Shown: positions 3,325 through 62,358 of the stretch, piece after piece
How the letters are laid out: the number at the start of each line of letters is the position of its first letter
Position numbering within the stretch: the first letter of the stretch is position 1
Assembly (NCBI GenBank): GCA_965261485.1
Contig: CBDHCY010000005.1
Location: forward strand, 1,359,616-1,423,615
Source of the DNA: Leptospiria bacterium
GTDB lineage: Bacteria; Spirochaetota; Leptospiria; Turneriellales; CBDBES01
Length of the DNA stretch: 64,000 nucleotides
Reading direction: 5' to 3'
The notes under the pieces: model-generated
Told to the model about the DNA's origin: nothing
What the model saw: the letters and a program-made list of their open reading frames with translations, nothing else
The model's database searches: none
Translations under genes and position numbers: made by a program

Positions 3325-4104
3325 TCAATTTACTAAAGTCTGCCTTAATTCACTAGAAATCTTTTTTAATTCATCACTCACGGTCGTTTTTTGGATAAGC
3401 TCTTCAAGAGAACTGGATATAGATAAAGAAAATTTTTTAATAAGACGCAATTGCGATTCAAAATGCCGACCTTTATTTTTTAAGATATAAGGATATTTCA
3501 TACTTAGCCTTTTCAGTTTTTGCTCATCTCTTTGCACAGACGACAAGAATTTTTTTAACATTTTTATACTTTTTTTAGAGCTAAAATTATTTTTATCCTT
3601 ACTTAATTCTTTTATTATTTTTTGATAATTATCTTTTTTTTTCTGAATAATATTTAAATATATTTTATTCAGAGTTTGTTCTTTATCTACCCCACGATTA
3701 AATACACGTTGATAAATTTTTACAAAAGCTATATTTTTTTTATATTTAGTAAACAATTTTCTCATTATCAATGAAAATTGCTCTACTGAGTGTCTCAGTA
3801 TTTTAGATGCATTTGGTGGATTATTTTCCTGATAATCAAAAAATTGTGGTTGTTTAAACTCTAAAAATAACATATTTTGGCTAATTGGAGTAATTCTTTT
3901 CAAGTGTCCTTTAAGAATATTTACAATAATTTCTGGATTTTTTGATTTTTCAAGTTTTTTAGTTGTTTTTTTATAATGCTTATTCATGCTCTTAATCGCT
4001 TGGATAAGCTGAATTCTAAATTTTTTTTCTTCAACTGAAGAAATTTTTTCTTCTTTACATGAGAAAAGAAAGACGAACAGCAAGAACCATCGAATAAAAA
4101 GCAC
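3325..4104 (-). CDS. Hypothetical Lys-rich lipoprotein
   Basis: 259 aa ORF with a signal peptide ending in a lipobox-like LFSC. I recognise no family. Confidence 0.4.
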   Translation of the reverse strand: MLFIRWFLLFVFLFSCKEEKISSVEEKKFRIQLIQAIKSMNKHYKKTTKKLEKSKNPEIIVNILKGHLKRITPISQNMLFLEFKQPQFFDYQENNPPNASKILRHSVEQFSLIMRKLFTKYKKNIAFVKIYQRVFNRGVDKEQTLNKIYLNIIQKKKDNYQKIIKELSKDKNNFSSKKSIKMLKKFLSSVQRDEQKLKRLSMKYPYILKNKGRHFESQLRLIKKFSLSISSSLEELIQKTTVSDELKKISSELRQTLVN

Positions 4105-4155: not shown

Positions 4156-4674
4156 TTATTTACAATATGTGATACCTTGTTCTGTAATTAATATAGAAAC
4201 TTTTTTATCATGCTGCTCAATAGGAATTTGCTCAAGTATCTGCCAGTGATAACCCAAGAATATAACTTCCTGACGATGACAAAATCTTAAAAAACGATCA
4301 TAATAACCACTTCCTCTCCCTAAACGATAACCATTTTTTTGTACAAATAACGCAGGTACGATCATTACATCAATCTGATGAGCATCTATAAATTCATTAG
4401 AGTCAATATTTTTAAGTATGAGTCCCAAACCCCGTATCTTTGGTATATAAATATTCTTAACTCCCACATCACGAAGAATTTTTAAAATATCTATCTCTGA
4501 TGGAAAGGGCTTATAGGCCATAAATTTACAAGATTGCAACCCCAGTCTTCTAAACCTTAAGTAAATTTTTAAATATTTTTCAACCTCATGAAGGTATTTA
4601 TTATCTCTTTTTTTTGACTGCCATCTACGAAAAAAGAACTTTCTAAGTTCTTTTTTTTTATCAATGTCAAACAT
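4156..4674 (-). CDS. 5-formyltetrahydrofolate cyclo-ligase
   Basis: 172 aa ORF with the C-terminal motif NGYRLGRGSGYYDRFL, characteristic of the MTHFS family. Confidence 0.75.
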   Translation of the reverse strand: MFDIDKKKELRKFFFRRWQSKKRDNKYLHEVEKYLKIYLRFRRLGLQSCKFMAYKPFPSEIDILKILRDVGVKNIYIPKIRGLGLILKNIDSNEFIDAHQIDVMIVPALFVQKNGYRLGRGSGYYDRFLRFCHRQEVIFLGYHWQILEQIPIEQHDKKVSILITEQGITYCK

Positions 4675-6327: not shown

Positions 6328-7749
<1,422 letters not shown>

Positions 7750-8634
7750 TCAATTAATCGCACCAGCTCCTCCGACAAGTTCAGCAATCTCTTGCGTAAT
7801 TCTTGCTTGTCTAGCTCGATTATAAACCAAAGTTAAATCACGAATAATTTCGGTTGCATTTTCGGTTGCATTTTTCATTGCAATCCGTCGAGCGATTTGT
7901 TCTGACGCAATTGATTCAAGAAAAGCTTGAAAAACACTTATTCGTATGGAATAAGGCAAAAGAGATTTAAGAATCTCAGCAGATGAAGGTTCAAACAAAA
8001 AATTATATTTTTCTTTTGAATCTTTTTTTACATCGTCGTTGCAACTATCTTCAACATAAAAAGGTAAAAGTGGAGTAACTAGAGTTATTTGGGATGTTGA
8101 CGACATATATCGAGTAGAAATAATTTCAAATTGATCAATGCCAGAAATAGTAAATTGATCAATAAAATAGTCAGTGATTTTTTTGACTTCTTGAAAAGAT
8201 GGCTTATCTTCAATATCGGTAAAACTTTTTTCAAAGGCAATCTTTAAAAAATTAAAAGTACTAACGGCCTTTCTACCTATAAGATGAATTTTACATTGAA
8301 TATTTTGAGTCTCAAGCTCATAAATTCGCCGCTGAGCTAATTTAATTATATTATTATTAAATCCACCACATAATCCACGGTTACCCGAGAAAATAAGCAT
8401 TCCAACCTTTTGAGGTGACGCTACATTTTTAAGAAGAGGATGGTTCAATTTTTGTAAAGCAAAAGCTACATTTAGAGTTAATTGTTTTATTTTTTTTGAA
8501 TATATTATCGACTGACCCAATCGATCAACAGCTTTTTTAGATTTAGCTGTTGCCACCATCTCCATTGTTTTAGTAATCTTTTTTGTGTTTTGAATCGCTG
8601 AGATGCGAGTTTTAATTTCTTTTAGGGTCGCCAT
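7750..8634 (-). CDS. atpG: F1 ATP synthase subunit gamma
   Basis: 294 aa. N-terminal MATLKEIKTRISAIQNTKKITKTMEMVA and C-terminal ARQARITQEIAELVGGA are canonical for gamma. Confidence 0.95.
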   Translation of the reverse strand: MATLKEIKTRISAIQNTKKITKTMEMVATAKSKKAVDRLGQSIIYSKKIKQLTLNVAFALQKLNHPLLKNVASPQKVGMLIFSGNRGLCGGFNNNIIKLAQRRIYELETQNIQCKIHLIGRKAVSTFNFLKIAFEKSFTDIEDKPSFQEVKKITDYFIDQFTISGIDQFEIISTRYMSSTSQITLVTPLLPFYVEDSCNDDVKKDSKEKYNFLFEPSSAEILKSLLPYSIRISVFQAFLESIASEQIARRIAMKNATENATEIIRDLTLVYNRARQARITQEIAELVGGAGAIN

Positions 8635-8658: not shown

Positions 8659-10173
8659 TTAACAAAGGGATTTTTTAAAATCTTCAGTAAATTCAGTTAA
8701 AATCGCTTTAAGAGAATTTTCATTCGGCAATTGTTTTTTTTCTCGAATCTCAACTAACACCTCGCCATGATGGTCTTGAATATAGACTAAAAGTTTCTTT
8801 TCATAATTACATACTTCTTTAACGGGAATATCATCTAAGTAACCTTTCGTTCCTGTATAAATTGAAAGCACCTGATTTTCAATAGGATAGGCATCATATT
8901 GGTTTTGTTTTAAAAGTTCGACCAAACGCTTCCCTCGGTCAATTTGATTTTGAGTAACTTTATCAAGTTCTGTACCCAATTGAGCAAAAGCTTCCAATTC
9001 ACGAAACTGTGCTAGATCAAGACGGAGCGTGCCCGCTACTTTTTTCATTGCTTTAATTTGAGCATTCCCTCCTACACGAGAAACAGAGATACCTACATCA
9101 ATAGCGGGTCGAACACCAGCAGCGAATAAATTTGGCTGAAGATAAATTTGTCCGTCAGTAATTGAAATTACATTTGTAGGAATATAAGCTGATACTTCAC
9201 CTTCTTGAGTTTCGATGATAGGGAGCGCCGTCAAAGACCCCCCCTTATATTGATCACTTAATTTTGCAGCTCTTTCTAAGAGACGAGAGTGAAGATAAAA
9301 AACATCACCAGGATAGGCTTCACGACCTGGAGGCCTTTTTAAAAGCAGGGACATCTCTCGATAAGCATTTGCCTGCTTTGTCAAATCATCATAAACACAA
9401 AGAGTAGCCTTACCTTGTTCATACATAAATTCTTCCGCAATCGCTGTTCCCGCATAAGGTGCTAAAAACTGCATAGGTGCCGGATCTGAAGCATTTGCAG
9501 AAACAATAATTGTATAATTAAGAGCACCATGCTCTCTAAGTTTTTCGATAACTAAAGCAACGGTAGACGCTTTTTGACCAATAGCAACATAGACACAAAT
9601 CACATCCTTCCCCTTCTGATTAATAATAGTATCAATAGCAATGGCTGTTTTACCCGTACCTCGATCACCAATAATTAATTCACGTTGCCCCCTGCCAATA
9701 GGTATCATCGAATCAATCGCTTTAATACCTGTTTGCATGGGCTCAGTAACGGGTTGTCTCTTAGCAATTCCTGGAGCAATGATTTCAATAGGACGACTAC
9801 TTGTTGTATCGATAGCCCCCTGCCCATCAATCGGCTCACCCAAAGGGTTAACAATTCGACCCATCAAAGCATTTCCTGTAGGTATCTGAAGAATTTGATC
9901 CGTTCGCTTAATTAGCATCCCCTCTTTAACATGAAGAAAGTCTCCCAGTATCACAACACCCACCGAACTTTCTTCTAAATTAAAAACCAGGCCCATAATA
10001 CCATTTTCAAACTCAACCATTTCATTCGCCATGCAATTTTTGAGACCATAAATACGAGCTATCCCATCACCAACCTCTAACACAGTACCTACTTCATCAA
10101 CATTAAGATCTTTACCATATTCAGAGATTTCTCGCTTTAGAACCGATACAATTTCTTCTGTTTTTATTTTCAT
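8659..10173 (-). CDS. atpA: F1 ATP synthase subunit alpha
   Basis: 504 aa with Walker A GDRGTGKT and strong alpha-subunit similarity throughout. Confidence 0.98.
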
Positions 10174-11677: not shown

Positions 11678-12733
11678 TCAATGTCTATGCTGAGCTTCAG
11701 AGATAAACAGACCAGTTAAAAAAGTAAAAATATATGCTTGTAAAAAAGCAACAAAGAGTTCAAGTAAGTAAATTGCCGCTGAGGCACTTACGCTAATAGG
11801 GACTATAAAATAATTACGAAATTGAAAGATGAAACTCATTAAAATTAAAATAATAATGTGTCCTGCTGTCATATTCGCTAATAACCTGATAGAAAGAGCA
11901 ATAGGCTTTATGATAAGGCCAGTCAATTCAATAATCCAGAGCAGAGGACCCAAAGCAAGAGGCACTCCTGAAGGAACAATATTCTTAATATAGAAAAACC
12001 CCTGATAAGTAAAGCCTGAAATTAGAATGACGAGAAAAACAAGCCCAGCCAAACCCGCGGTCACACCAAGATCACCAGTAGCAGTAATTCCTGGCCATAG
12101 TTTGACCAAAAGAGGCACTCCATGAGCTCCAGCTTCAGTGTGATGAATAAAACCAAAAGATTCTCCTAAAATTTGGAAGACTTCTCCCATAGGTGGGAAG
12201 AGACCAAGTATATTACAAGATAATATGAAAAAAAAAAGTGTCAATAAAAAAGGTTCGTATGCAGAAGAATGACGCCCCATGGTCGCCCTACCTACATTCT
12301 CTCGAATAAAAGTAACCAAGACTTCAATAAATCCACCAAATCGAGAAGGTTTCTTGTATGGGTTTAACCTTGCTTTAATTCCAAGAGGAATAAGTAGTAA
12401 TAGTAAAAAAACTGACGCAAGCCACATCATAACAACTCTTTTAGTAATAGAGAGATCATAACCATTATATTTTAAATTCCACAAAGGAGCGTCTGCTAAA
12501 TGATGATTAACTACTTCACTTAAATTAAAGCTAGGCCGATTCTCGTCAGATGATATTTCAATTAATTTTTCATTTTTAAGCTGAATTTTTTTTTGACCAA
12601 CCACATCTAAGCTCTTCTGTATGTTCTCTTTTTTAGATGAGTCTAGTAAAGGCTCAGGGAAAGCCCATATTCTGGATGAAAGTATCAACACTATAACAAG
12701 AAATTGAAGATTTCTAAACACGTTCTTAGCCAC
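11678..12733 (-). CDS. atpB: Fo ATP synthase subunit a with an N-terminal extension of about 100 aa
   Basis: 351 aa with a GTG start. The C-terminal half carries the LSIRLLANMTAGH motif with the essential Arg. The N-terminus has a signal-like hydrophobic segment and a polar linker. Confidence 0.9.
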   Translation of the reverse strand: MAKNVFRNLQFLVIVLILSSRIWAFPEPLLDSSKKENIQKSLDVVGQKKIQLKNEKLIEISSDENRPSFNLSEVVNHHLADAPLWNLKYNGYDLSITKRVVMMWLASVFLLLLLIPLGIKARLNPYKKPSRFGGFIEVLVTFIRENVGRATMGRHSSAYEPFLLTLFFFILSCNILGLFPPMGEVFQILGESFGFIHHTEAGAHGVPLLVKLWPGITATGDLGVTAGLAGLVFLVILISGFTYQGFFYIKNIVPSGVPLALGPLLWIIELTGLIIKPIALSIRLLANMTAGHIIILILMSFIFQFRNYFIVPISVSASAAIYLLELFVAFLQAYIFTFLTGLFISEAQHRH

Positions 12734-13244: not shown

Positions 13245-14399
13245 TTAATACACTCCAATAAAAGCCATAGAAACCGTTGACTGACTACTTTTATTTCCAG
13301 AATATATTTTCTTATCAGAAAGATCTAAACGATATTCTGGTTTAATTAGAAAATAACCATAATACAGAGAGATTGTCCCTGTTACAGTTAAACCATAAGA
13401 GTGAGCACCAATGCCCGACGCAAACCCGCGAACACCCGAGGAATCATTAAAATACTCATTTCTTATAGAAATCATATAATTGTGTTTTTTTTCAGGAACA
13501 ATCAAATAATCAATATAAAAAGCGGCACCATACCAGAGCTCAGATTCAACCCCTTTGGAAACACTTTCACTTCCAAAAGCGACGTTGAGCCCAAGATTAA
13601 GCCGATCTGCCAATTGATAAGTGCTAGTGAGGTCAAACAAATGTCTCCAGCCTCCCACTTCAGCAGACTCATCACCACCCATATAATTTAAATATATATC
13701 TAAGTCTTTTATATACCCAAGAGAGACTTGAGCAGTTAACGATTTTTCAGAGTTAATATCATGATTAGAAGAGGCGTCCCAACCATTTACAAGACCAACC
13801 ATAATCCCTAATTCTTCTGTTATTGAATAATCTATTTTGGCACCTAAGTGATAGAATGGACCATAGCCAAATAAATTGGACAAGCTATAATGAGAGTTTA
13901 AGTACGCCTCAATCACTTCATACCCAATATGCGTATTATATTGACCAACGGTCAACGTAGCACCAAAAAAAGAAACAGATGCATATGCTTGCTTGATAGC
14001 GGTTGAAGTAATTGAATTACCAACTATGCCGACATTACCAAAATTACCTAATTCTGCATTTGGACCATGAGCTAGATCAATCATTAGCATCCAATCATCA
14101 TTACCCACCTCAAGCTGTGTCTGCAGCAAGCCAAATCGAAATTCATTATGAGCACTATCAAAAATTCTGAAAGAATTTTCAGTCGCTCCTTCGTTGACAT
14201 TAAAAGAATAATAAGTATCTACGTACCCTCTTAAACTCAGATAGACAGGATAATTTTTACTCCCAATTGAAATTGATTCTAATATTTTTTTTTGTGATGA
14301 ATCATCACTTTTTTCTGAAGAGGAGCCTTCAGAGACTTGAGCCATCAAAACTCCTCCAGTTAACAATCCAAAAAGTAGCACAACTATAATTTTTTTCAT
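13245..14399 (-). CDS. Outer-membrane beta-barrel porin (OmpL/bbp2-like), last gene of the amtB-glnK cluster
   Basis: 384 aa with signal peptide MKKIIVVLLFGLLTGGVLMA. Alternating amphipathic beta-strand pattern rich in Y/G/N, and a C-terminal aromatic residue (...AFIGVY). Confidence 0.6.
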   Translation of the reverse strand: MKKIIVVLLFGLLTGGVLMAQVSEGSSSEKSDDSSQKKILESISIGSKNYPVYLSLRGYVDTYYSFNVNEGATENSFRIFDSAHNEFRFGLLQTQLEVGNDDWMLMIDLAHGPNAELGNFGNVGIVGNSITSTAIKQAYASVSFFGATLTVGQYNTHIGYEVIEAYLNSHYSLSNLFGYGPFYHLGAKIDYSITEELGIMVGLVNGWDASSNHDINSEKSLTAQVSLGYIKDLDIYLNYMGGDESAEVGGWRHLFDLTSTYQLADRLNLGLNVAFGSESVSKGVESELWYGAAFYIDYLIVPEKKHNYMISIRNEYFNDSSGVRGFASGIGAHSYGLTVTGTISLYYGYFLIKPEYRLDLSDKKIYSGNKSSQSTVSMAFIGVY

Positions 14400-17833: not shown

Positions 17834-18664
17834 TCAAACACTAACTTTAAAATCTCTTAGTGCATCATTCAAACTTGTTTTTTTATCAGTAGACTCTTTT
17901 CGCTTACCTATAATCAGAGCACAAGGAACATGATATGTTCCCGCTGGAAATATTTTGGGTAGGCTACCAGGAATAACTACTGAATTTTTAGGCACAAGAC
18001 CTTTTTGAATTTTCTCATTTTTTTGAGTTACATCCACAATTTTTGTAGATGCAGTTAGTACAACTCCACTTCCCAAAACAGCGCCTTCCTGAATACGCAC
18101 ACCTTCTACAACAATAGCTCGACTACCTAGAAATGCATAATCTTCGATAATAATGGGTTCTGCCTGAGGAGGTTCAAGAACACCTCCTATCCCTACCCCT
18201 CCTGATAAATGTACAAACTTACCAATTTGAGCACAACTGCCCACTGTCGCCCATGTGTCGACCATCGTTCCTGTAGAGATATAAGCACCAATATTTACAT
18301 ATGAAGGCATTAATATAGCACCCGCTTCAATATATGAACCATAGCGTGCGATGGCTGGTGGCACAACCCTGATATTGTGTTTATCAAAATTCTTCTTGAT
18401 AGGAATTTTATCCCAATATTCAATATCACCTGAATGTATAACTTTCATTTCTTTTACACGAAAGTAAAGTAAAATAGATTTTTTTACCCACTCATTAACA
18501 CGCCACCCATCTTGAGTAGGCTCGGCAACCCGAATCTCTCCTTTATCTATTTTTTCTACAGCTTCTAAAATAATTTCTTTTGATTCAATATTTTGGAGTA
18601 TGAAAGGTTTGTCTTGAACAGATTCATATAAATCGTTAATAATAGGGGCTAAGTTTTCAGACAT
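17834..18664 (-). CDS. dapD: 2,3,4,5-tetrahydropyridine-2,6-dicarboxylate N-succinyltransferase
   Basis: 276 aa with an N-terminal DapD-type domain (RVNEWVKKSILLYFR) followed by left-handed beta-helix hexapeptide repeats. Confidence 0.8.
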   Translation of the reverse strand: MSENLAPIINDLYESVQDKPFILQNIESKEIILEAVEKIDKGEIRVAEPTQDGWRVNEWVKKSILLYFRVKEMKVIHSGDIEYWDKIPIKKNFDKHNIRVVPPAIARYGSYIEAGAILMPSYVNIGAYISTGTMVDTWATVGSCAQIGKFVHLSGGVGIGGVLEPPQAEPIIIEDYAFLGSRAIVVEGVRIQEGAVLGSGVVLTASTKIVDVTQKNEKIQKGLVPKNSVVIPGSLPKIFPAGTYHVPCALIIGKRKESTDKKTSLNDALRDFKVSV

Positions 18665-31027: not shown

Positions 31028-31143
31028 AGGTTTGTGCTTATTTTTTTAAAAAAAATTAATGTCGCAACTTTGCACATGACGTGTGAAAAGGGCAGATAAA
31101 AAAGAGACTATTTTCTGCTGATCACAAACAATGCCAGATCCGC

Positions 31144-32169
31144 CTATGGTCGTAAACGCTCAATCTCTTCTACAGAAAGGCCGGTGCTTCTTGAGATCAT
31201 GTTAATAGAGATACCCTCTGTCAATAGACTTTGAGCTACCTCAGCCTTGCCCTTAGTCATGCCCTCAGCCTTACCCTTAGTCATGCCCTCGATTATGCCT
31301 TCAGCTCTACCCTTAGTCATGCCTTCAGCTCTGCCCTTAGTTATGCCCTCAGCTCTGCCCTTAGTCATGCCTTCAGCTCTGCCCTTAGTTATTAGTTTTC
31401 TTGCAATGCTTTCCACATCCCCTCCTGCATTTGGTGAGATGTATTCCACCGCACTCTTTACAATAAAATCAATAGTAAACTCGCCAGTGCTAGTAATAAT
31501 ATAGTTCAATAAAACATCAAGCATTTTCTTATTCTCTTGAGAGATTCGTGCATAATAATCTTTGAAAAGATCTTCTAAGCGTGACCTGCTCGATAAAAAC
31601 CAAATATCCTGTAGACTTTTTAAAAATGCCTGTACCGCCACAGAGAAATCGGTAAACTCTGTTTTATCTGAACGAAGATCAAGTAATTCATAGTGAAAGT
31701 CTGGTATGTATTTTTGTAAAGCTTTTCTCAGATGCTCAGGAATCATCAAAGAACTGCTAAAAAGCGTAGGAATATCCCACTCTTTTTTTCCGTGATAAAG
31801 CACTAAAGGAATCACGGGCATTTTGCTTGTTTTGTAAATTCCAGCTAAATACATGAGAAGTTGTGAATGAATATTTTTTTCTTTATACGATTTATGTTCT
31901 ATCAGACAAAAAACGCCCAGCCTTTTTGATTCCGAAGATTCCGAATGTTCTGAATCTGATTGCTTTTTGATAGGTATGCTGTAGAGAATATCAGTGAATC
32001 GTTCTTGATCTGTTGCATCAATAAAGTTGCCTTTCTCTATTTTTAACTTTGTAAAGTCTAGCTCTGATGTGATCTCTTTAGGTAGAGCATTTTTAAGAAA
32101 ATCTACCGCGTAAGTTTTTTGTGATAAAACTTGTTTGGTTATGATGTCGTGTTGGTTTAGCTTTGCCAT
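31144..32169 (-). CDS. Rpn family recombination-promoting nuclease / putative transposase (YhgA-like, PD-(D/E)XK), copy A
   Basis: 341 aa. The N-terminus (NQHDIITKQVLSQKTYAVDFLKNALP) and the nuclease core (FTDILYS ... CLIEHKSY) fit the family. C-terminal TKGRAEG(M/I) octapeptide repeats are followed by a GLSVEEIERL tail. Confidence 0.8.
   Translation of the reverse strand: MAKLNQHDIITKQVLSQKTYAVDFLKNALPKEITSELDFTKLKIEKGNFIDATDQERFTDILYSIPIKKQSDSEHSESSESKRLGVFCLIEHKSYKEKNIHSQLLMYLAGIYKTSKMPVIPLVLYHGKKEWDIPTLFSSSLMIPEHLRKALQKYIPDFHYELLDLRSDKTEFTDFSVAVQAFLKSLQDIWFLSSRSRLEDLFKDYYARISQENKKMLDVLLNYIITSTGEFTIDFIVKSAVEYISPNAGGDVESIARKLITKGRAEGMTKGRAEGITKGRAEGMTKGRAEGIIEGMTKGKAEGMTKGKAEVAQSLLTEGISINMISRSTGLSVEEIERLRP
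31241..31392 (-). repeat. 24 bp coding tandem repeat in rpn-like gene A
   Basis: Six units of TCAGC(C/T)(T/C)T(G/A)CCCTTAGT(C/T)ATGCC(C/T) plus a 12 bp half unit, encoding (I/M)TKG(R/K)AEG. Confidence 0.85.
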
Positions 32170-32289: not shown

Positions 32290-32640
32290 CTCCGCCCGGC
32301 GAGTAGACTCGCCACTCGTAACGGCGGTCGCCAGTCTCCGCCCAGCGAGTGCATCACTCGCGACTAGCGGTCACTCTTCGCCTAGCGAGCAAAGCATCAC
32401 TAGCGACTGTCGATCGGATACCCTCCGCCCGGCGAGCGAAGCGCCACTGGTGATCGGCACCCTCGCCTAGCGAGCAAAGCATCACTCGCGATTATCGGTC
32501 GCCACTCTTCGCACAACAAAGCATCACTCGCGATTATCGATCGCCACTCTTCGCCCAGAGAGCGAAGCATCACTCGCGATTATCGATCGCCACTCTCCGC
32601 CCAGCGAGCGAATCGCCACTCGCGATTGACGGTCGAGCTA
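32290..32640. repeat. Non-coding GC-rich degenerate tandem array, eight units of 38-47 bp
   Basis: Units start at 32290, 32336, 32376, 32423, 32461, 32507, 32549 and 32595. The consensus is CT(T/C)CGCCCAG(C/A)GAGCGAAGCATCACTCGCGATTATCGATCGCCACT. Unit 32549-32594 has 26/46 G+C in a ~30% GC genome. Units carry TCGCGA and CGATCG/ATCGAT palindromes and a CTTCGC-N7-GCGAAG hairpin. No ORF of 60 aa or more lies here. Confidence 0.9.
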
Positions 32641-32838
32641 TCGTTGCCCTTTGATCAGATCGCCGTATGATGCACATACACCGTCTGTTATTGAGCCGAC
32701 ACATCTTTTGATCGCAGGCAATTGCATATTGGTGCCTAGGTCCCAAGCTTTTGTGTTGTCAGTGCCACCACTCGGCAAACCATCAGGATGCGTGCCAGTT
32801 ATAGCTTGTAGCTGGGCTAGCGTAAGACCCCGTCGCAC
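32638..32838 (-). pseudogene. Out-of-frame C-terminal segment of the GLUG lipoprotein cassette gene
   Basis: It encodes LTLAQLQAITGTHPDGLPSGGTDNTKAWDLGTNMQLPAIKRC. The 1810 aa paralog has the matching terminal module (...GDAWDLATENQLPTLRRC). It overlaps the 604 aa ORF in another frame. Confidence 0.7.
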
Positions 32839-34564
32839 CTGCTACGTCCACCATAGCACCATTTGAAGCTGCAATGTTACCATTTCCGAGCATTTTTTTA
32901 ACGCCATTCGCACTTTGAGGTGCGTCGATATTCCAATAACTGTTTGTGATTGTCAAAGTACGAGCAACAGAAACAGAAGAAAAAGAACCCATCAGACCAC
33001 CTGAAAAAGAAGTACCAGCAGAAGCAGAAGAAATCTTACCAGAACCACTAGAATAACTATTCACTATCGTCAAAGAATCAGAATTAGAAGGAGAATTAGA
33101 TTCAGAAGCACCTATCAGACCGCCTGAATAAGAAGAGGAAGCAGAAGAGGAAATAGTAGCAGAAGAAGAAGAAATCTCACCAGAACCACTAAAATAACTA
33201 TTCACTATCATCAAAGAACCAACAGAATTACCCACCAGACCGCCTGAATAAACACGAGAAGAACCAGAAGAAGAAGAAACCCCACCAGAACCACTAAAAT
33301 AACTATTCACTATCATCAAAGAACCACCAGAATCACCCACCAGACCGCCTGAAAAAACACTAGAAGGAGAACCAGAGGAAGCAGAAACCCCACCAGAACC
33401 ACTAAAATAACTATTCACTATCATCAAAGAACCAACAGAAGTACCCACCAGACTGCCTGAATAAGGATTAATAGAAGAAGAATGAACCGATCCAGAGATT
33501 ACGCCTACATTGCGAATCTCAACAGTTCCAGCTATCACACCAAATAAACCTACACGATTAAAAGAACCATTCACCCAGAGGTTCGCTATGGTATGGTTGT
33601 TACCCTCAAAAATACCGGTGAATCGACTTTCATCATTAACCGTCAAATCATCGCCAATCGGCATCCAGCTTGTGTCTTTGCCCGTGCCTGTATCAATTAC
33701 CGTCACCTGCTTATCAAAGCCATCAGTCATGCTATTATCCGTCGTATCGCCATCGGCATTTGTATCAATGCCAATCATTATCGTATCAATCATCCCATTC
33801 GCTTTACCTGCATCTCCACCACCTGTATCAAGAAAATTCAAAAGATCAATATCTACTGCTAATTCATAACCGTTGCAACCAGTCGATGGGCAACCACTCG
33901 AGTCACCAACCCCACCATCCGAGGTCTTATAACTTGCACCCGCTAGATCGTGTCGCATATTATCGAGCATTGTAGCGGTATATATCTCAATCAAACCATC
34001 ACGATCAAGATCAGCAGTCGCAGTGCTCCTCACTCTCACATCAACGGTGTGACCATCTTGAAATGTTACAATATTAGGGTCGCTATCTATATTCGATATG
34101 ATCGTATGATTGATCAACCCAGTGATATCCGCCGAAATCTTATTAAATACACCATTTGCATCTGCTTTCCCTTTAACTATGATTGTTTGGGCGGCTTTTC
34201 CCGTGGTCTTCGTGAAGTTCACAACAGCAGGGCTTATCTGCAAGGCGTCGTTATCACTTGTAAGTGTAACTCGCACTGCTTTAACTAATGCCGAATCTTC
34301 ACTTAACGAGATTGTATACTCAACACCTGTGCCGCCCAGTATGTCATAAAAAGCAAGTGCATTCTCAGAGAGAATAACCTTGCCAATAACAGATTTATCT
34401 GGATTGTTCGGATTATTCGGGTTATCTGGATTATCTGGGTTGCCCATCTTCGATGAATCATCAGAACACTCAAATAATAAAAGACTAGTGACCACAGCCA
34501 TCAAGCCACCTTTGATCACGCGAGCCACATAAAGTCTCATCCAATATTTCATATTTTCACACAT
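32783..34564 (-). CDS. GLUG-repeat surface lipoprotein, short cassette paralog, frameshifted near the 3' end
   Basis: GAGGAGG lies 6 nt before ATG 34564, whereas the track start is 34597. The signal peptide has lipobox LLLFEC, followed by an NPD/NPN linker and a Calx-beta-like module. Next come DLDRDGLIEIYTATMLDNMRHDL, a Ca-binding D-rich module, NLWVN and five clean GLUG repeats (SGGLVG...LMIVNSYFSGSG). Confidence 0.8.
   Translation of the reverse strand: MCENMKYWMRLYVARVIKGGLMAVVTSLLLFECSDDSSKMGNPDNPDNPNNPNNPDKSVIGKVILSENALAFYDILGGTGVEYTISLSEDSALVKAVRVTLTSDNDALQISPAVVNFTKTTGKAAQTIIVKGKADANGVFNKISADITGLINHTIISNIDSDPNIVTFQDGHTVDVRVRSTATADLDRDGLIEIYTATMLDNMRHDLAGASYKTSDGGVGDSSGCPSTGCNGYELAVDIDLLNFLDTGGGDAGKANGMIDTIMIGIDTNADGDTTDNSMTDGFDKQVTVIDTGTGKDTSWMPIGDDLTVNDESRFTGIFEGNNHTIANLWVNGSFNRVGLFGVIAGTVEIRNVGVISGSVHSSSINPYSGSLVGTSVGSLMIVNSYFSGSGGVSASSGSPSSVFSGGLVGDSGGSLMIVNSYFSGSGGVSSSSGSSRVYSGGLVGNSVGSLMIVNSYFSGSGEISSSSATISSSASSSYSGGLIGASESNSPSNSDSLTIVNSYSSGSGKISSASAGTSFSGGLMGSFSSVSVARTLTITNSYWNIDAPQSANGVKKMLGNGNIAASNGAMVDVAGATGSYASPATSYNWHAS
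32932..33465 (-). repeat. Near-identical 105-108 bp coding tandem repeats (GLUG units)
   Basis: The plus-strand string CCAGAACCACTAAAATAACTATTCACTATCATCAAAGAACC recurs three times almost exactly. The protein units are SGGLVG(D/N)S(G/V)GSLMIVNSYFSGSGG(V/I)S... Confidence 0.85.
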
Positions 34565-34907
34565 AAAACGCCTCCTCAGACATTGACCGCATTTCATTAT
34601 GCCGATCTTGCAAATAAATTAAGTTAGAATCGCCTTCAAGTTTGATGGGTGCTCCAACACCACGAAAAAAATAAAATAAAAGGCCGAGGACCTCAGCAAA
34701 AGCCACAGCTTTTGCTGAAATAACATGCATAATGATCGTTAGGGCTAACGCCCCACTTGCAAAATTTTTGAGAGAAATGCCGCGAAGGCACGACCTATTT
34801 TTTTTAGAGAATAAACTAAGACCTAAGTCTAGTGTCTGTAGTTCTGTAGTTCTGTAGTTCTGTAGTTCTGTAGTTCTGTAGTTCTGTAGTTCTGTAGTTC
34901 TGTTCAT
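34557..34907 (-). CDS. Leader ORF containing the 8 bp repeat tract, with its stop overlapping the GLUG lipoprotein start (coding status uncertain)
   Basis: 116 aa ORF. ATG 34907 is followed 5 nt later by the (ACTACAGA) tract. Its TGA stop sits within ATGTGTGA at the downstream start. The Shine-Dalgarno sequence is weak (GGAAAG abuts the ATG). Confidence 0.3.
   Translation of the reverse strand: MNRTTELQNYRTTELQNYRTTELQTLDLGLSLFSKKNRSCLRGISLKNFASGALALTIIMHVISAKAVAFAEVLGLLFYFFRGVGAPIKLEGDSNLIYLQDRHNEMRSMSEEAFYV
34835..34903 (-). repeat. Octanucleotide tandem repeat, eight full copies plus a partial copy
   Basis: The plus strand reads TCTGTAGT x8 at 34835-34898, then TCTGT. On the minus strand the unit is ACTACAGA. 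Unit length is not a multiple of 3. Confidence 0.95.
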
Positions 34908-35068
34908 CTTTCCAAGCCCCGCACAGAGCAGATATTAGTCAACAATGCCTGCACATGTTGTCAACATTTTTTATCTTTTTTGATGTCGCAACTTTGCACA
35001 TGACGTGTAAAAAGGGCGGGTAAAAAAAGAGACTATTTTCTGCTAATCACAAACGATGCCAGATCCGC

Positions 35069-36094
35069 CTATGGTCGTAAGTGCTCAATCTCTTCTACAG
35101 AAAGGCCGGTGCTTCTTGAGATTATTTTAATAGAGAAACCCTCTTTCAAGAGACTTTGAGCTACTTCAGCTCTGCCCTTAGTCATGCCCTCGGTTATGCC
35201 CTTAGTCATGCCCTCGGTTATGCCTTCAGCCTTACCCTTAGTCATGCCCTTAGTCATGCCCTCAGTCATGCCCTCGATTATGCCTTCAGCTCTGCCCTCA
35301 GCTATTAGCTCGTCTGCAATGGATCTCATATCTCCTCCTGCCTTTGGTGAAATGTATTGCCCAGCACTTTTTACAATAAAATTAATAGTAAGCTTACCAG
35401 TGCTAGTAATAATATAGTTAAATAAATCATCAAGCATTTTCTTATTCTTTTGATAAATTCGTGCAAAATAATCTCTGAAAAGATCTTCTAGGCGTGACTT
35501 GTTCGATAAAAACCAAATATCCTGTAGACTTTTTAAAAATGCCTGTACCGCTACAGAGAAATTGGTGAACTCTGTTTTATCTGAGCGAAGATCAAGTAGC
35601 TCATAGTGAAAGTCTGGTATATATTTTTGTAAAGATTTTCTCAGATGCTCAGGAATCATCAAAGAACTACTGAAGAGCGTAGGAATATCCCACTCTTTTT
35701 TTCCATGATAAAGCACTAAAGGAATCACGGGCATTTTGCTCGTTTTGTAAATTCCAGCCAAATACATGAGAAGTTGTGAATGAATATCTTTTTCTTTATA
35801 CGATTTATGTTCTATCAGACAAAAAACGCCGAGCCTTTTTGATTCCGAAGATTCCGAATGTTCTGAATGTTCTGAATCTGATTGCTTTTTTGTTGTAGGT
35901 ACGCTGTAGAGAATATCAGTGAATCGTTCTTGATCTGTTGCATCAATAAAGCACCCTTTCTCTATTTGTAATTTTGTAAAGTCTAGCTCTGATGTGATTT
36001 CTTTAGGCAGAGCATTTTTAAGAAAATCCACCGCATAAGTTTTTTGTGATAAAACTTGTTTGGTTATAATGTCGTGTTGGTTTAGCTTTGCCAT
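35069..36094 (-). CDS. Rpn family recombination-promoting nuclease / putative transposase (YhgA-like), copy B
   Basis: 341 aa and near-identical to copy A outside the acidic SDSEHSE insert and the C-terminal (M/I)T(K/E)G repeat block. Confidence 0.8.
   Translation of the reverse strand: MAKLNQHDIITKQVLSQKTYAVDFLKNALPKEITSELDFTKLQIEKGCFIDATDQERFTDILYSVPTTKKQSDSEHSEHSESSESKRLGVFCLIEHKSYKEKDIHSQLLMYLAGIYKTSKMPVIPLVLYHGKKEWDIPTLFSSSLMIPEHLRKSLQKYIPDFHYELLDLRSDKTEFTNFSVAVQAFLKSLQDIWFLSNKSRLEDLFRDYFARIYQKNKKMLDDLFNYIITSTGKLTINFIVKSAGQYISPKAGGDMRSIADELIAEGRAEGIIEGMTEGMTKGMTKGKAEGITEGMTKGITEGMTKGRAEVAQSLLKEGFSIKIISRSTGLSVEEIEHLRP
35166..35305 (-). repeat. 12/24 bp coding tandem repeat in rpn-like gene B
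   Basis: CTTAGTCATGCC-type 12 bp subunits encode MTKG/MTEG/ITEG. Their order and number differ from copy A. Confidence 0.8.
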
Positions 36095-60441: not shown

Positions 60442-62358
60442 TCACTTTTTTTTTAGAATTTTTCCTTTTGGTAATTTTGATTTTGATTTTTGAGGGACTA
60501 ATTTTTTCTTAGATATTTTTGGCTTTCCAAAAATAAGCTCTCTTACCCTATCACCAGTAACCGTTTCTTCTTCTAGCAAAACTCCCGCAATTTTATTCAA
60601 TTCTCGCTTATATTTTATTAATAAAGCACGTCCTTTTTTAGCTGATGTATCTATAATTTTTTTTATCTCAATATCAACCAAGCGAGCGTATTCATTAGAA
60701 TACGCTACACTTTTAGCATAATCTCTACCTAAAAATACAGAATTATTATCCCCCCCCCCCAAATTAATTGGCCCAATAGTGCTTGACATACCCCATTCAG
60801 TAACCATTTTTCTAGCAATATTAGTCGCTCTCTCAATATCATTAGACGCACCTGTTGTCGTATCACTAAATTGAATTGACTCAGCGAGATACCCTCCCAT
60901 TAAAACAACAACTTCATCTAACCAAAATTTTTTTGATTTCATATGCCTTTCTTCTTTAGGTAATTGTTGTGTTATACCTAATGCCCTACCCCGAGGAATA
61001 ATCGTCACCTTATGAACAGGATCTATATTTTTAAGCACTGTAGAAAGAAGAGCATGACCACCTTCATGATAAGCAATAATTTCTTTTTCTTCACTTGTAA
61101 TAAAAAATGATTTTCTTTCTGGCCCCATCATCACTTTATCACGAGCTTCTTCAAAATCAAGTTGAAAAACTTTCTTTTTTCCTCTTTTGACCGCACACAG
61201 GGCTGCCTCATTAGCAAGATTAGCCAAATCAGCACCTGTAAAACCAGGAGTACCTCTCGCAATATCTTCAAGTGACACCTCAGACGCTAGGGGAATTTTT
61301 GTAGAATGAATCGCCAAGATTTTAGTTCGACCTTTAACATCTGGAGTATCAACAATAATCTGCCTATCAAAACGCCCAGGCCTCAGAAGAGCTGGATCTA
61401 AAACATCTGGACGATTTGTAGCAGCCAGTAATATAATTCCAGCACTATCTTCAAACCCATCCATCTCTACCAATAGTTGGTTTAAAGTCTGTTCTCTCTC
61501 ATCATGACCTCCACCAAGACCGGCACCACGTAGCCTTCCCACTGCATCAATCTCATCAATAAAAACAATACAAGGTAACTGTTTTTTGGCTTGTTGAAAC
61601 ATATCTCGAACACGACTAGCTCCAACACCTACAAACATCTCTACAAAATCAGATCCGGAAATTGAAAAAAATGGAACATCCGCCTCACCCGCACAAGCTC
61701 TTGCTAATAAAGTTTTACCTGTTCCGGGAGGTCCCACTAATAAAACACCCTTAGGTATTTTTGCCCCTATTTCATGAAATTTTTTAGGTTCCTTGAGAAA
61801 TTCCACAATTTCTGCTAATTCCTCTTTAGCCTCTTCCACTCCAGCAATATCTTTAAAAGTTACCTTTTTTTTGTCATTAACCCTGAGCTTAGCCTTTGAT
61901 TTACCAAAACTAAGAGCACGATTACCTGTCGACTGCAATTGTCGCATAAGCATCATCCAAAAAAAGCCGATAATAAGAACCCAAGGTAAAACATATGTTA
62001 TCGAACGCCAGAAAAGATTTTCCTCTTTTGGAACCCCTTTAAAAGCAATTTTATTATCTTTCAGACGAGAGATTAAAGCTTCATCAGAATATGCAATATA
62101 AGTCATAAAAGCAGTTTCTTTATTAACCGCAGGGTCAGTATAGTAACCCTTAATAAGATTTTCCTGAATAAACAATGTTTTTTCGGCATCAGTACCCGTA
62201 ACAATTCGCTTCTGTTCAACCAACTGTAAAAATCTTGAGTATGATATTTCTTTACTGGGGGATTTAGTTGTGTTAATTACCTGATAAAATACAAGAGAAC
62301 CCAAAAAAACAAGCAATATAAGAGAAATATTTTTTAAATTTTTACTCATACTAAACAA
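60442..62358 (-). CDS. ftsH: ATP-dependent zinc metalloprotease FtsH
   Basis: 638 aa with an N-terminal TM pair. The AAA+ module has Walker A GPPGTGKT, Walker B IVFIDEID and [21 protein letters not shown]. The Zn motif is HEGGHAL. Coordinates come from the ORF track, and my manual reading places the stop at 60427-60429 (see the rejected-items note). Confidence 0.97.

Follow-up and report, generated by a model that had tools for sequence, protein, structure and literature searches.

An octanucleotide-headed upstream open reading frame as a candidate slipped-strand switch for a variable surface lipoprotein of an uncultured leptospiral spirochaete

The Haemophilus influenzae genes lic1, lic2A and lgtC carry tetranucleotide repeats just after alternative ATG codons, the Neisseria opa genes, a multigene surface-protein family, carry (CTCTT)n in the region that encodes the signal peptide, and the hpuAB operon of Neisseria meningitidis has a poly-G run in its upstream gene that turns the two genes on and off together by polarity. 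Leader-peptide attenuation and translation-dependent antitermination are known from the trp- and tna-type leaders. Phase variation of surface-protein families through simple sequence repeats (SSRs) is classical (PMC11868660); H. influenzae hmw1 and hmw2 have a heptanucleotide SSR in the 5' untranslated region (UTR) (PMC12721329), and the vlp, vsp and vlhA lipoprotein families of Mycoplasma have conserved 5' cassettes with promoter-region repeats (PMC6080569). Here we describe an octanucleotide tract at the head of a 116-codon leader open reading frame (ORF), whose stop codon overlaps the start of a putative variable surface lipoprotein gene, in a 64,000-nucleotide stretch of a Leptospiria bacterium genome (contig CBDHCY010000005.1, positions 1,359,616 to 1,423,615; this whole stretch is called the window below). 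We lean towards the view that the tract is a working slipped-strand contingency switch on one member of a variable lipoprotein family, by a mechanism that we propose from the sequence.

The tract, the leader, the lipoprotein gene and the flanking Rpn genes all lie on the minus strand. A script found a pure period-8 run of 69 nt (34835..34903, 100% pure) with 8.6 units of ACTACAGA, of which eight are complete (34835..34898) and the remaining 5 nt form a partial unit, just as the initial annotation had read it after ATG 34907; Tandem Repeats Finder gave 9.1 copies, 98% matches and a score of 139 for the same run. It is the sole SSR with at least four perfect units and a period above 1 across the 64 kb, and its two-unit 16-mer has seven matches in the window versus 0.03 expected from shuffles. 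Octanucleotide tracts of at least three units are a published criterion for candidate phase-variable loci (PMC7383803). The minus strand reads ggaaagATGA-ACAGA-(ACTACAGA)x8-CACTAGACTTAGGTCTTAG, and the tract reads as (TTELQNYR)n in all three frames. The leader begins with the ATG at 34905..34907 and at the present copy number stays open for 116 codons (34557..34907, minus strand); its in-frame homologues of 116–147 amino acids (aa) were called by gene callers. Its TGA (34559..34557) lies inside ATGTGTGA and overlaps the lipoprotein ATG (34564..34562), which stands behind the Shine-Dalgarno sequence GAGGAGG (34571..34577, minus strand) that is kept in all cassettes of this type. Both the 116-codon length and this overlap had been claimed from the first reading of the sequence, and both stand.

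The two other frames are closed 3–17 nt past the tract by a pair of off-frame stops (34816..34831, minus strand; TAG 34831..34829 and TAG 34818..34816), which had also been read correctly, and an equivalent stop pair is present in the sister contig L043 described below. In simulations, a gain or loss of one or two units shortens the leader to 19–36 aa, and a change of three units brings the full ORF back. The initial annotation was therefore right that a one-unit change ends the leader early, but not that this happens more than 300 nt upstream of the lipoprotein start, since only 268 and 255 nt separate the closing TAGs from the lipoprotein ATG. As in SSR contingency loci, a non-triplet unit is present in a run long enough to slip (8.6 perfect 8-nt units) and the repeat is placed inside an ORF, with an effect on the lipoprotein that we infer; as in an upstream-ORF arrangement, the leader ends over the putatively regulated start, at ATGTGTGA in the window and in the L043 cassettes. 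The locus resembles lic1, lic2A and lgtC in having a non-triplet SSR, of the kind that changes by slipped-strand mispairing, immediately 3' of the start codon, and in having alternative ATGs (here ATGAATG in several copies) that let more than one repeat phase initiate. It differs from them in its unit of 8 nt rather than 4, in that the repeat occupies a separate upstream ORF of about 116 codons in another frame, and in its host, an uncultured Leptospirales spirochaete.

The same cassette is found at least nine times in the window's genome and L043, an ENA metagenome assembly contig. Across these cassettes the tract ranges from 8.6 to 20.6 units and is pure in every case, and the flanks are 95–99% identical. 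L043 contains three consecutive units, each in the order Rpn gene, tract, leader, lipoprotein gene and 46-nt array, with tracts of 15.0, 10.0 and 14.4 units (each 100% pure) and leaders (272 nt) that have at most two mutual differences and about 5% differences from the window leader. When the leader ORF was used as a protein query, every in-frame homologue recovered belonged to one of these cassettes (three in L043 and six in the genome of the window itself); the latter six ORFs are 116, 116, 124, 129, 144 and 147 aa long, which implies 8.6, 8.6, 11.6, 14.4, about 19.3 and 20.6 units, respectively. Tract length is polymorphic between close sequences; it changes far faster than the flanks acquire substitutions while purity is kept, and this is the signature of ongoing slippage. 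The suspicion in the initial annotation that the repeat is slippage-prone agrees with this variation between near-identical flanks, and from these comparisons we consider it highly probable that the ACTACAGA tract is hypermutable by slippage. In runs X1 and X2 (Logan k=31 contigs) the tract collapses into a 38-nt unitig, and its k-mers stand from several-fold (bin average) to hundreds-fold (peak bin) above the unique depth of 50.5x, an excess that is consistent with many tracts. Two further copies are degenerate: the decayed L048 cassette (gene at L048 8119) retains one degenerate unit and has its leader deleted, and L051 has a degenerate, non-repetitive "tract" in front of a leader that is intact and open. 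A scan of JGI metagenomes with a conserved 24-nt leader word gave no match.

Paralogues in sister genomes have other repeats in a similar place. L046 encodes three adjacent paralogues with the arrangement Shine-Dalgarno-ATGTATAAA(A)GAAAA-(ATTCAATC)n-signal peptide, again with an 8-nt unit (repeats at 10016-10112, 13923-13993 and 18551-18597), in which n = 12.1 and n = 5.9 are in frame and n = 8.9 is out of frame; in the n = 8.9 copy an ATGA overlapping an internal ATG closes the short ORF. (This out-of-frame copy also has an expanded poly-G in its Shine-Dalgarno sequence.) L047 has the arrangement ATG-(AGGTTTACTCA)18.6-signal peptide with an 11-nt unit (4251-4455). Different non-triplet repeats thus occur at the same functional position within one family, which strongly favours selection for switchability in this lipoprotein family. 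The L046 and L047 loci match the opa design closely, and the family as a whole is like opa in being a large paralogous surface family with an SSR at the 5' end of each copy that would allow independent switching. The window locus differs from opa in that its repeat is 270 nt of leader away from the signal peptide and the two ORFs overlap out of frame.

Pure ACTACAGA tracts of up to 14.6 units are also present in unrelated phyla, with 13 fetched loci in one Lewinella genome. The octamer tract loci are L006, L007, L021 and L027 (Lewinella sp. IMCC34183), L022 (Aeromonas sobria) and L013 (an Endozoicomonas metagenome-assembled genome [MAG]). Most of these tracts have no preceding ATG, and some lie directly 5' of long ORFs. 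The 42 loci that came from a scan of genome contigs for three units of the octamer (Lewinella, Gemmatimonadota, Aeromonas and others) were rejected as homologues of the cassette on account of their different architecture, and the tracts in unrelated phyla may represent an independent contingency or dispersed-repeat system.

Upstream of the leader is a promoter-like element, P1 (34936..34979, minus strand), in which an A-rich stretch is followed by TTGACA (34964..34959) and, after a spacer of 17 nt, by a weak -10 sequence (TGACTA, 34941..34936); transcription is predicted to start near 34929. More distant, tract-less paralogues with the same signal peptide (in L048, L049 and L050) have an A-rich TTGACA-N17-T[A/G]nnnn element 55–70 nt before their ATG, and in one L049 paralogue (at 4286) an identical gataaaaaatgttgacaacgtgtgcaggcattgtt is joined via 27 nt to the Shine-Dalgarno region, with no tract. 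A contig of run X1 has the same junction, skipping from 34583 to 34940, and variant contigs in that run diverge at 34936-34940. From the homology to the tract-less paralogues we infer, rather than map, P1 as the lipoprotein promoter, and the tract with its leader of about 300 nt appears to be an insertion between P1 and the ancestral 5' UTR. The tract is downstream of P1 and so is expected in the same transcript as the lipoprotein, at about +25 to +95. A palindrome, ATGTTGACAACAT (34967..34955, minus strand), overlaps the -35 hexamer, and a second TTGTTGAC (34940-34948) lies 22 nt downstream; the two are kept in all cassettes and could be a binding site for a regulator.

The leader ORF contains a terminator-like element (34665..34717, minus strand) that was recovered by a terminator scan, by the minimum free energy (MFE) fold and by a consensus fold of four copies. 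It combines two hairpins, one of 10 bp (34717..34694) and a small GC one, with a U-rich run of 18 nt (34682..34665), and the element is kept in four copies with wobble-type changes only. Both the MFE and the centroid fold leave the tract RNA unpaired, with no predicted pairing partner, and the tract and the next 60 nt or so have a C/G ratio of 1.3–1.9, above the 90th percentile of the window; such C-rich RNA resembles a Rho loading site. Neither the leader nor the 46-nt array has a match among Rfam-type RNA families, even at E<=1. An alternating antiterminator/terminator pair was considered and rejected, as the 10-bp hairpin overlaps the terminator stem in the window but the two hairpins coexist in L043, so that the alternation is not conserved.

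The switch that we favour would work as follows. Transcription would start at P1, about 22 nt upstream of ATG 34907, and ribosomes would initiate at this ATG and translate through the tract. With an in-frame number of units the whole leader of about 270 nt would be translated up to the TGA that overlaps the lipoprotein ATG, and the ribosomes covering the leader would suppress termination. After gain or loss of one or two units the ribosomes would stop 3–17 nt behind the tract, and the ribosome-free leader RNA would be subject to termination at the hairpin and U-run (34717..34665), by Rho acting on the C-rich, unstructured tract RNA, or both; termination-reinitiation at ATGTGTGA would be lost as well, and lipoprotein output would fall. 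A wider proposal, which we offer tentatively and with more doubt than belief, is that a dedicated switch cassette (promoter, octanucleotide-headed ORF and internal terminator) governs each Rpn-flanked member of the family, and that the phase is passed on by translation-dependent antitermination together with termination-reinitiation. The likeness to hpuAB lies in the proposed silencing of a downstream cistron by a frameshift in the ORF before it; hpuA, however, is a functional lipoprotein gene, whereas the upstream ORF here seemingly has no conserved product and would serve as a switch only. The likeness to the trp- and tna-type leaders is a putatively translated leader ORF with a terminator-like hairpin and U-run, in which ribosome occupancy would decide read-through; here, by contrast, the input would not be a metabolite or charged tRNA but a frameshift inherited in the DNA, and there is no conserved antiterminator.

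Translation of the leader is suggested by several features. An ATG precedes the tract in 7/7 copies for which DNA is available, and in four of these (L043 copies a and b, L048 and L051) it is ATGAATG, with starts in two frames, a different one of the two being the one that serves copy a and copy b of L043. The frame behind the tract is open for about 90 codons in every copy seen (by our own estimate from base composition, not a tool result, 92 codons would stay open by chance with a probability of about 0.003 per frame). The indels in the body of the ORF (+3 and -3 nt) preserve the frame. Its codon-usage score is 0.135 per codon, compared with -0.12 or less in off-frame windows and 0.29 +/- 0.07 (minimum 0.126) in genes. 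In L051 the leader is still open though its tract cannot slip, and a 32-nt deletion has placed the TGA inside the Shine-Dalgarno sequence. The peptide belongs to no Pfam or NCBIfam family and has no homologues outside these cassettes. The pattern is one of openness without constraint on the sequence, as would be expected where translation matters and the product does not.

A number of observations weigh against such a switch. Substitutions in the leader are spread evenly over the codon positions (8/8/10), on which ground a conserved leader product was rejected, and synonymous changes are enriched only marginally, and not significantly, among the changed codons (8 synonymous:14 nonsynonymous, versus 4:17 and 5:16 in control frames). 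The leader ATG has a weak Shine-Dalgarno sequence (GGAAAG adjacent and GGGG at -15..-12), as the initial annotation had cautioned. The leader hairpins have no compensatory double changes, and the folding of the leader is no more stable than that of shuffles (z = 0.64 and -0.89), so a riboswitch-like global structure was rejected. The four tract-bearing cassettes with DNA sequence are all in frame (p about 0.05 with one or two ATGs that could be used), which could mean that the leader product is needed, and no out-of-frame ACTACAGA cassette has been seen, in a retrieval that is biased to called, in-frame ORFs. P1 has a poor -10 and was not called by a generic sigma-70 scan, and past the U-run there is another possible, weak promoter (TTGAAG-N17-TATTTG, 34639..34611). 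The lipoprotein Shine-Dalgarno sequence is strong and is not clearly sequestered in the predicted fold, and therefore reinitiation at ATGTGTGA alone may not gate expression, and any mRNA that extends this far could have its lipoprotein translated independently; the hairpin and U-run in the leader suggest that the link is no less likely to be polarity or attenuation. Finally, this lipoprotein copy lacks its last 62 or so residues through a +1 frameshift near 32829, and its canonical C-terminus (LTLAQLQAITGTHPDG...ASYGDLIKGQR*) runs on in another frame to 32638; the copy may be a decaying paralogue or the frameshift an assembly indel.

Some of these same facts fit an explanation that we think unlikely, in which the leader is a real small gene: the tract would vary only the N-terminal (TTELQNYR)n of a hydrophobic protein of about 85 residues, out-of-frame alleles would simply be deleterious, and the lipoprotein would be expressed independently from its own Shine-Dalgarno sequence and possibly its own promoter. 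The in-frame state of all cassettes seen, the frame-preserving indels, a codon usage at the low end of that of real genes and a hydrophobic stretch in the peptide, ASGALALTIIMHVISAKAVAFAEVLGLLFYFF, agree with it, as do the strong lipoprotein Shine-Dalgarno sequence and the TTGAAG-N17-TATTTG element past the terminator-like U-run. The substitution counts, however, give no sign of purifying selection on the peptide (8/8/10, with 14 nonsynonymous to 8 synonymous changes), its homologues are confined to the cassettes and outside any Pfam or NCBIfam family, and a hairpin with a U-run within the ORF is typical of non-coding leaders. A peptide that is needed would also be poorly served by a non-triplet repeat, the retrieval of called ORFs alone biases the sample towards the in-frame state, and the putative -10 sequence TATTTG is homologous to transcribed 5'-UTR sequence of the tract-less paralogues.

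It is likewise improbable, in our view, that the tract is a graded "volume control" in the 5' UTR that acts at the level of RNA or DNA, in which repeat number alters the length, structure or processing of the mRNA or the loading of Rho, and frame and ATG are irrelevant. The hmw genes are the precedent for a 5'-UTR SSR of this kind (PMC12721329), and the likeness extends to a long-unit SSR (7 nt there, 8 here) between the promoter and the gene of an adhesin-like surface protein, with a leader RNA that matters. The position of our tract between the inferred promoter and the lipoprotein start, the weak Shine-Dalgarno sequence of the leader and the unstructured tract RNA with C in excess of G are in keeping with it. 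The hmw repeat, on the other hand, is untranslated, forms a long hairpin with a G-rich arm and exerts graded control, whereas the locus described here has a conserved ATG (doubled in two frames in several copies) and a conserved open frame of about 90 codons behind the tract that ends on the lipoprotein start; the predicted fold contains no partner sequence for the tract, so that the locus does not belong with the hmw type, and the repeats of the sister genomes lie between ATG and signal peptide, where the frame clearly matters. That the tract is a neutral by-product, an expansion-prone repeat in a cassette homogenised by recombination or gene conversion and possibly promoted by Rpn, would suit the concerted evolution of the cassettes (leaders 95–99% identical, lipoprotein bodies about 60–83%), their Rpn flanks, the same octamer in other contexts in unrelated phyla, the decayed or deleted versions in L048 and L051 and the frameshift in this lipoprotein copy, but is made quite improbable by the precise, recurrent order of ATG, tract, off-frame stops and open frame ending on the next start, by the dual ATGs of some copies, by the independent origin, in paralogues of other genomes, of different repeat units (8 nt and 11 nt) at the same functional position, and by the in-frame state of all four cassettes.

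The gene that the favoured switch would control (32783..34564, minus strand) encodes a putative variable surface lipoprotein of 593 aa. Its N-terminus has a basic region, a hydrophobic core and the sequence ...LLLFEC|SDD (FLFQC or FGASC in paralogues), a putative lipobox with a residue at position -1 (E here, Q in FLFQC) that is unusual for bacteria other than spirochaetes, and the protein also has a DGLIEI...GCNGYEL module and repeated YSGGLVG...IVNSYFSGSG units. The initial annotation had called it a GLUG lipoprotein; the GLUG-type SGGLVG repeats are visible, and PF07581 is present in many homologues (in some only as faint hits), but the window protein itself has no Pfam hit at E<=0.01 and no NCBIfam GLUG call. 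At least 25 paralogues are encoded on the same contig of 2,133,161 bp, about 13 of which share the N-terminus M[CY][EK]N..YWM[RK]LY.ARVIKGG, and the 5' regions and signal peptides of the paralogues are homogenised. The Mycoplasma lipoprotein families are similar in the homogenisation of their 5' regions and signal peptides, in having expression-controlling repeats and in the tandem arrangement of the genes; they differ in the switch, which in Mycoplasma works through promoter spacing (poly-A, GAA) or site-specific inversion and not through an upstream ORF.

Directly upstream of the cassette is an Rpn-family (YhgA-like, PF04754) gene (35069..36094, minus strand) with a Pfam match at E=2.6e-33 (115.8 bits against a cut-off of 21) and a TIGR01784 score of 58.3 against 52.1, which places it in this family of PD-(D/E)XK nucleases. 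A second Rpn copy (31144..32169, minus strand) lies on the other side of the lipoprotein gene as a direct repeat. The two copies and their 3' flanks are 79–94% identical (92% between 31056-31103 and 34980-35027), and both genes are intact and have 12/24-nt in-frame repeats near the 3' end. The conserved 3' flank of the Rpn module (34980..35068, minus strand; repeat families D3 and D9) is also present in L043 and L048, and each L043 cassette is preceded by the same Rpn gene; this placement hints at a role for Rpn in recombination of the cassettes. The window cassette is closed by a GC-rich 46-nt tandem array (32300..32650, minus strand) of units such as CGATAATCGCGAGTGATGCTTTGCTCGCTGGGCGAAGAGTGGCGAT. 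An array of this kind separates each cassette lipoprotein gene from the Rpn gene that comes next, and those of L043 are at 3500-3876, 7535-8325 and 11939-12202.

The window has a GC content of 33.5%, its AtpD is about 80% identical to those of Turneriella and of Leptospiraceae or Leptospirales MAGs, and relatives encode FcpA, the Leptospira flagellar sheath protein; these features place the host, with its genome of 2.13 Mb, among uncultured spirochaetes of the Leptospirales lineage. Elsewhere in the window, the ftsH coding sequence has an 11-base G run (60750-60760, minus strand; reading ...NLGGGGDN...), which is unusual for an essential gene at 33.5% GC and could be slippage-prone or a weak spot of the assembly.

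Our literature searches found no SSR switch coupled through an upstream ORF, and three aspects of the locus appear to be new: the position of the repeat in an upstream ORF of its own that is out of frame and encloses a terminator, the modular Rpn-flanked cassette, and the lineage. Spirochaete contingency repeats have so far been mainly poly-G tracts in Treponema. If the favoured switch is real, it would be an upstream-ORF form of SSR phase variation that is not described in the reviews searched, with a new wiring in which a sacrificial upstream ORF carries the repeat and ribosome occupancy acts as the gate on the real gene. Genome-wide "phasome" predictors consider only repeats that are within annotated genes or immediately in front of them, and would overlook such a design or assign it wrongly. 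The Rpn genes and 46-nt arrays would then be a place to look for a role of Rpn in shuffling surface-antigen cassettes, and the different units of 8 and 11 nt that share one position in the sister genomes would be a natural example of the convergent birth of contingency repeats. The locus would then be the first contingency-locus system of the Leptospirales lineage, and would mean that an uncultured, small-genome relative of Leptospira varies its surface lipoproteins stochastically by means of contingency repeats.

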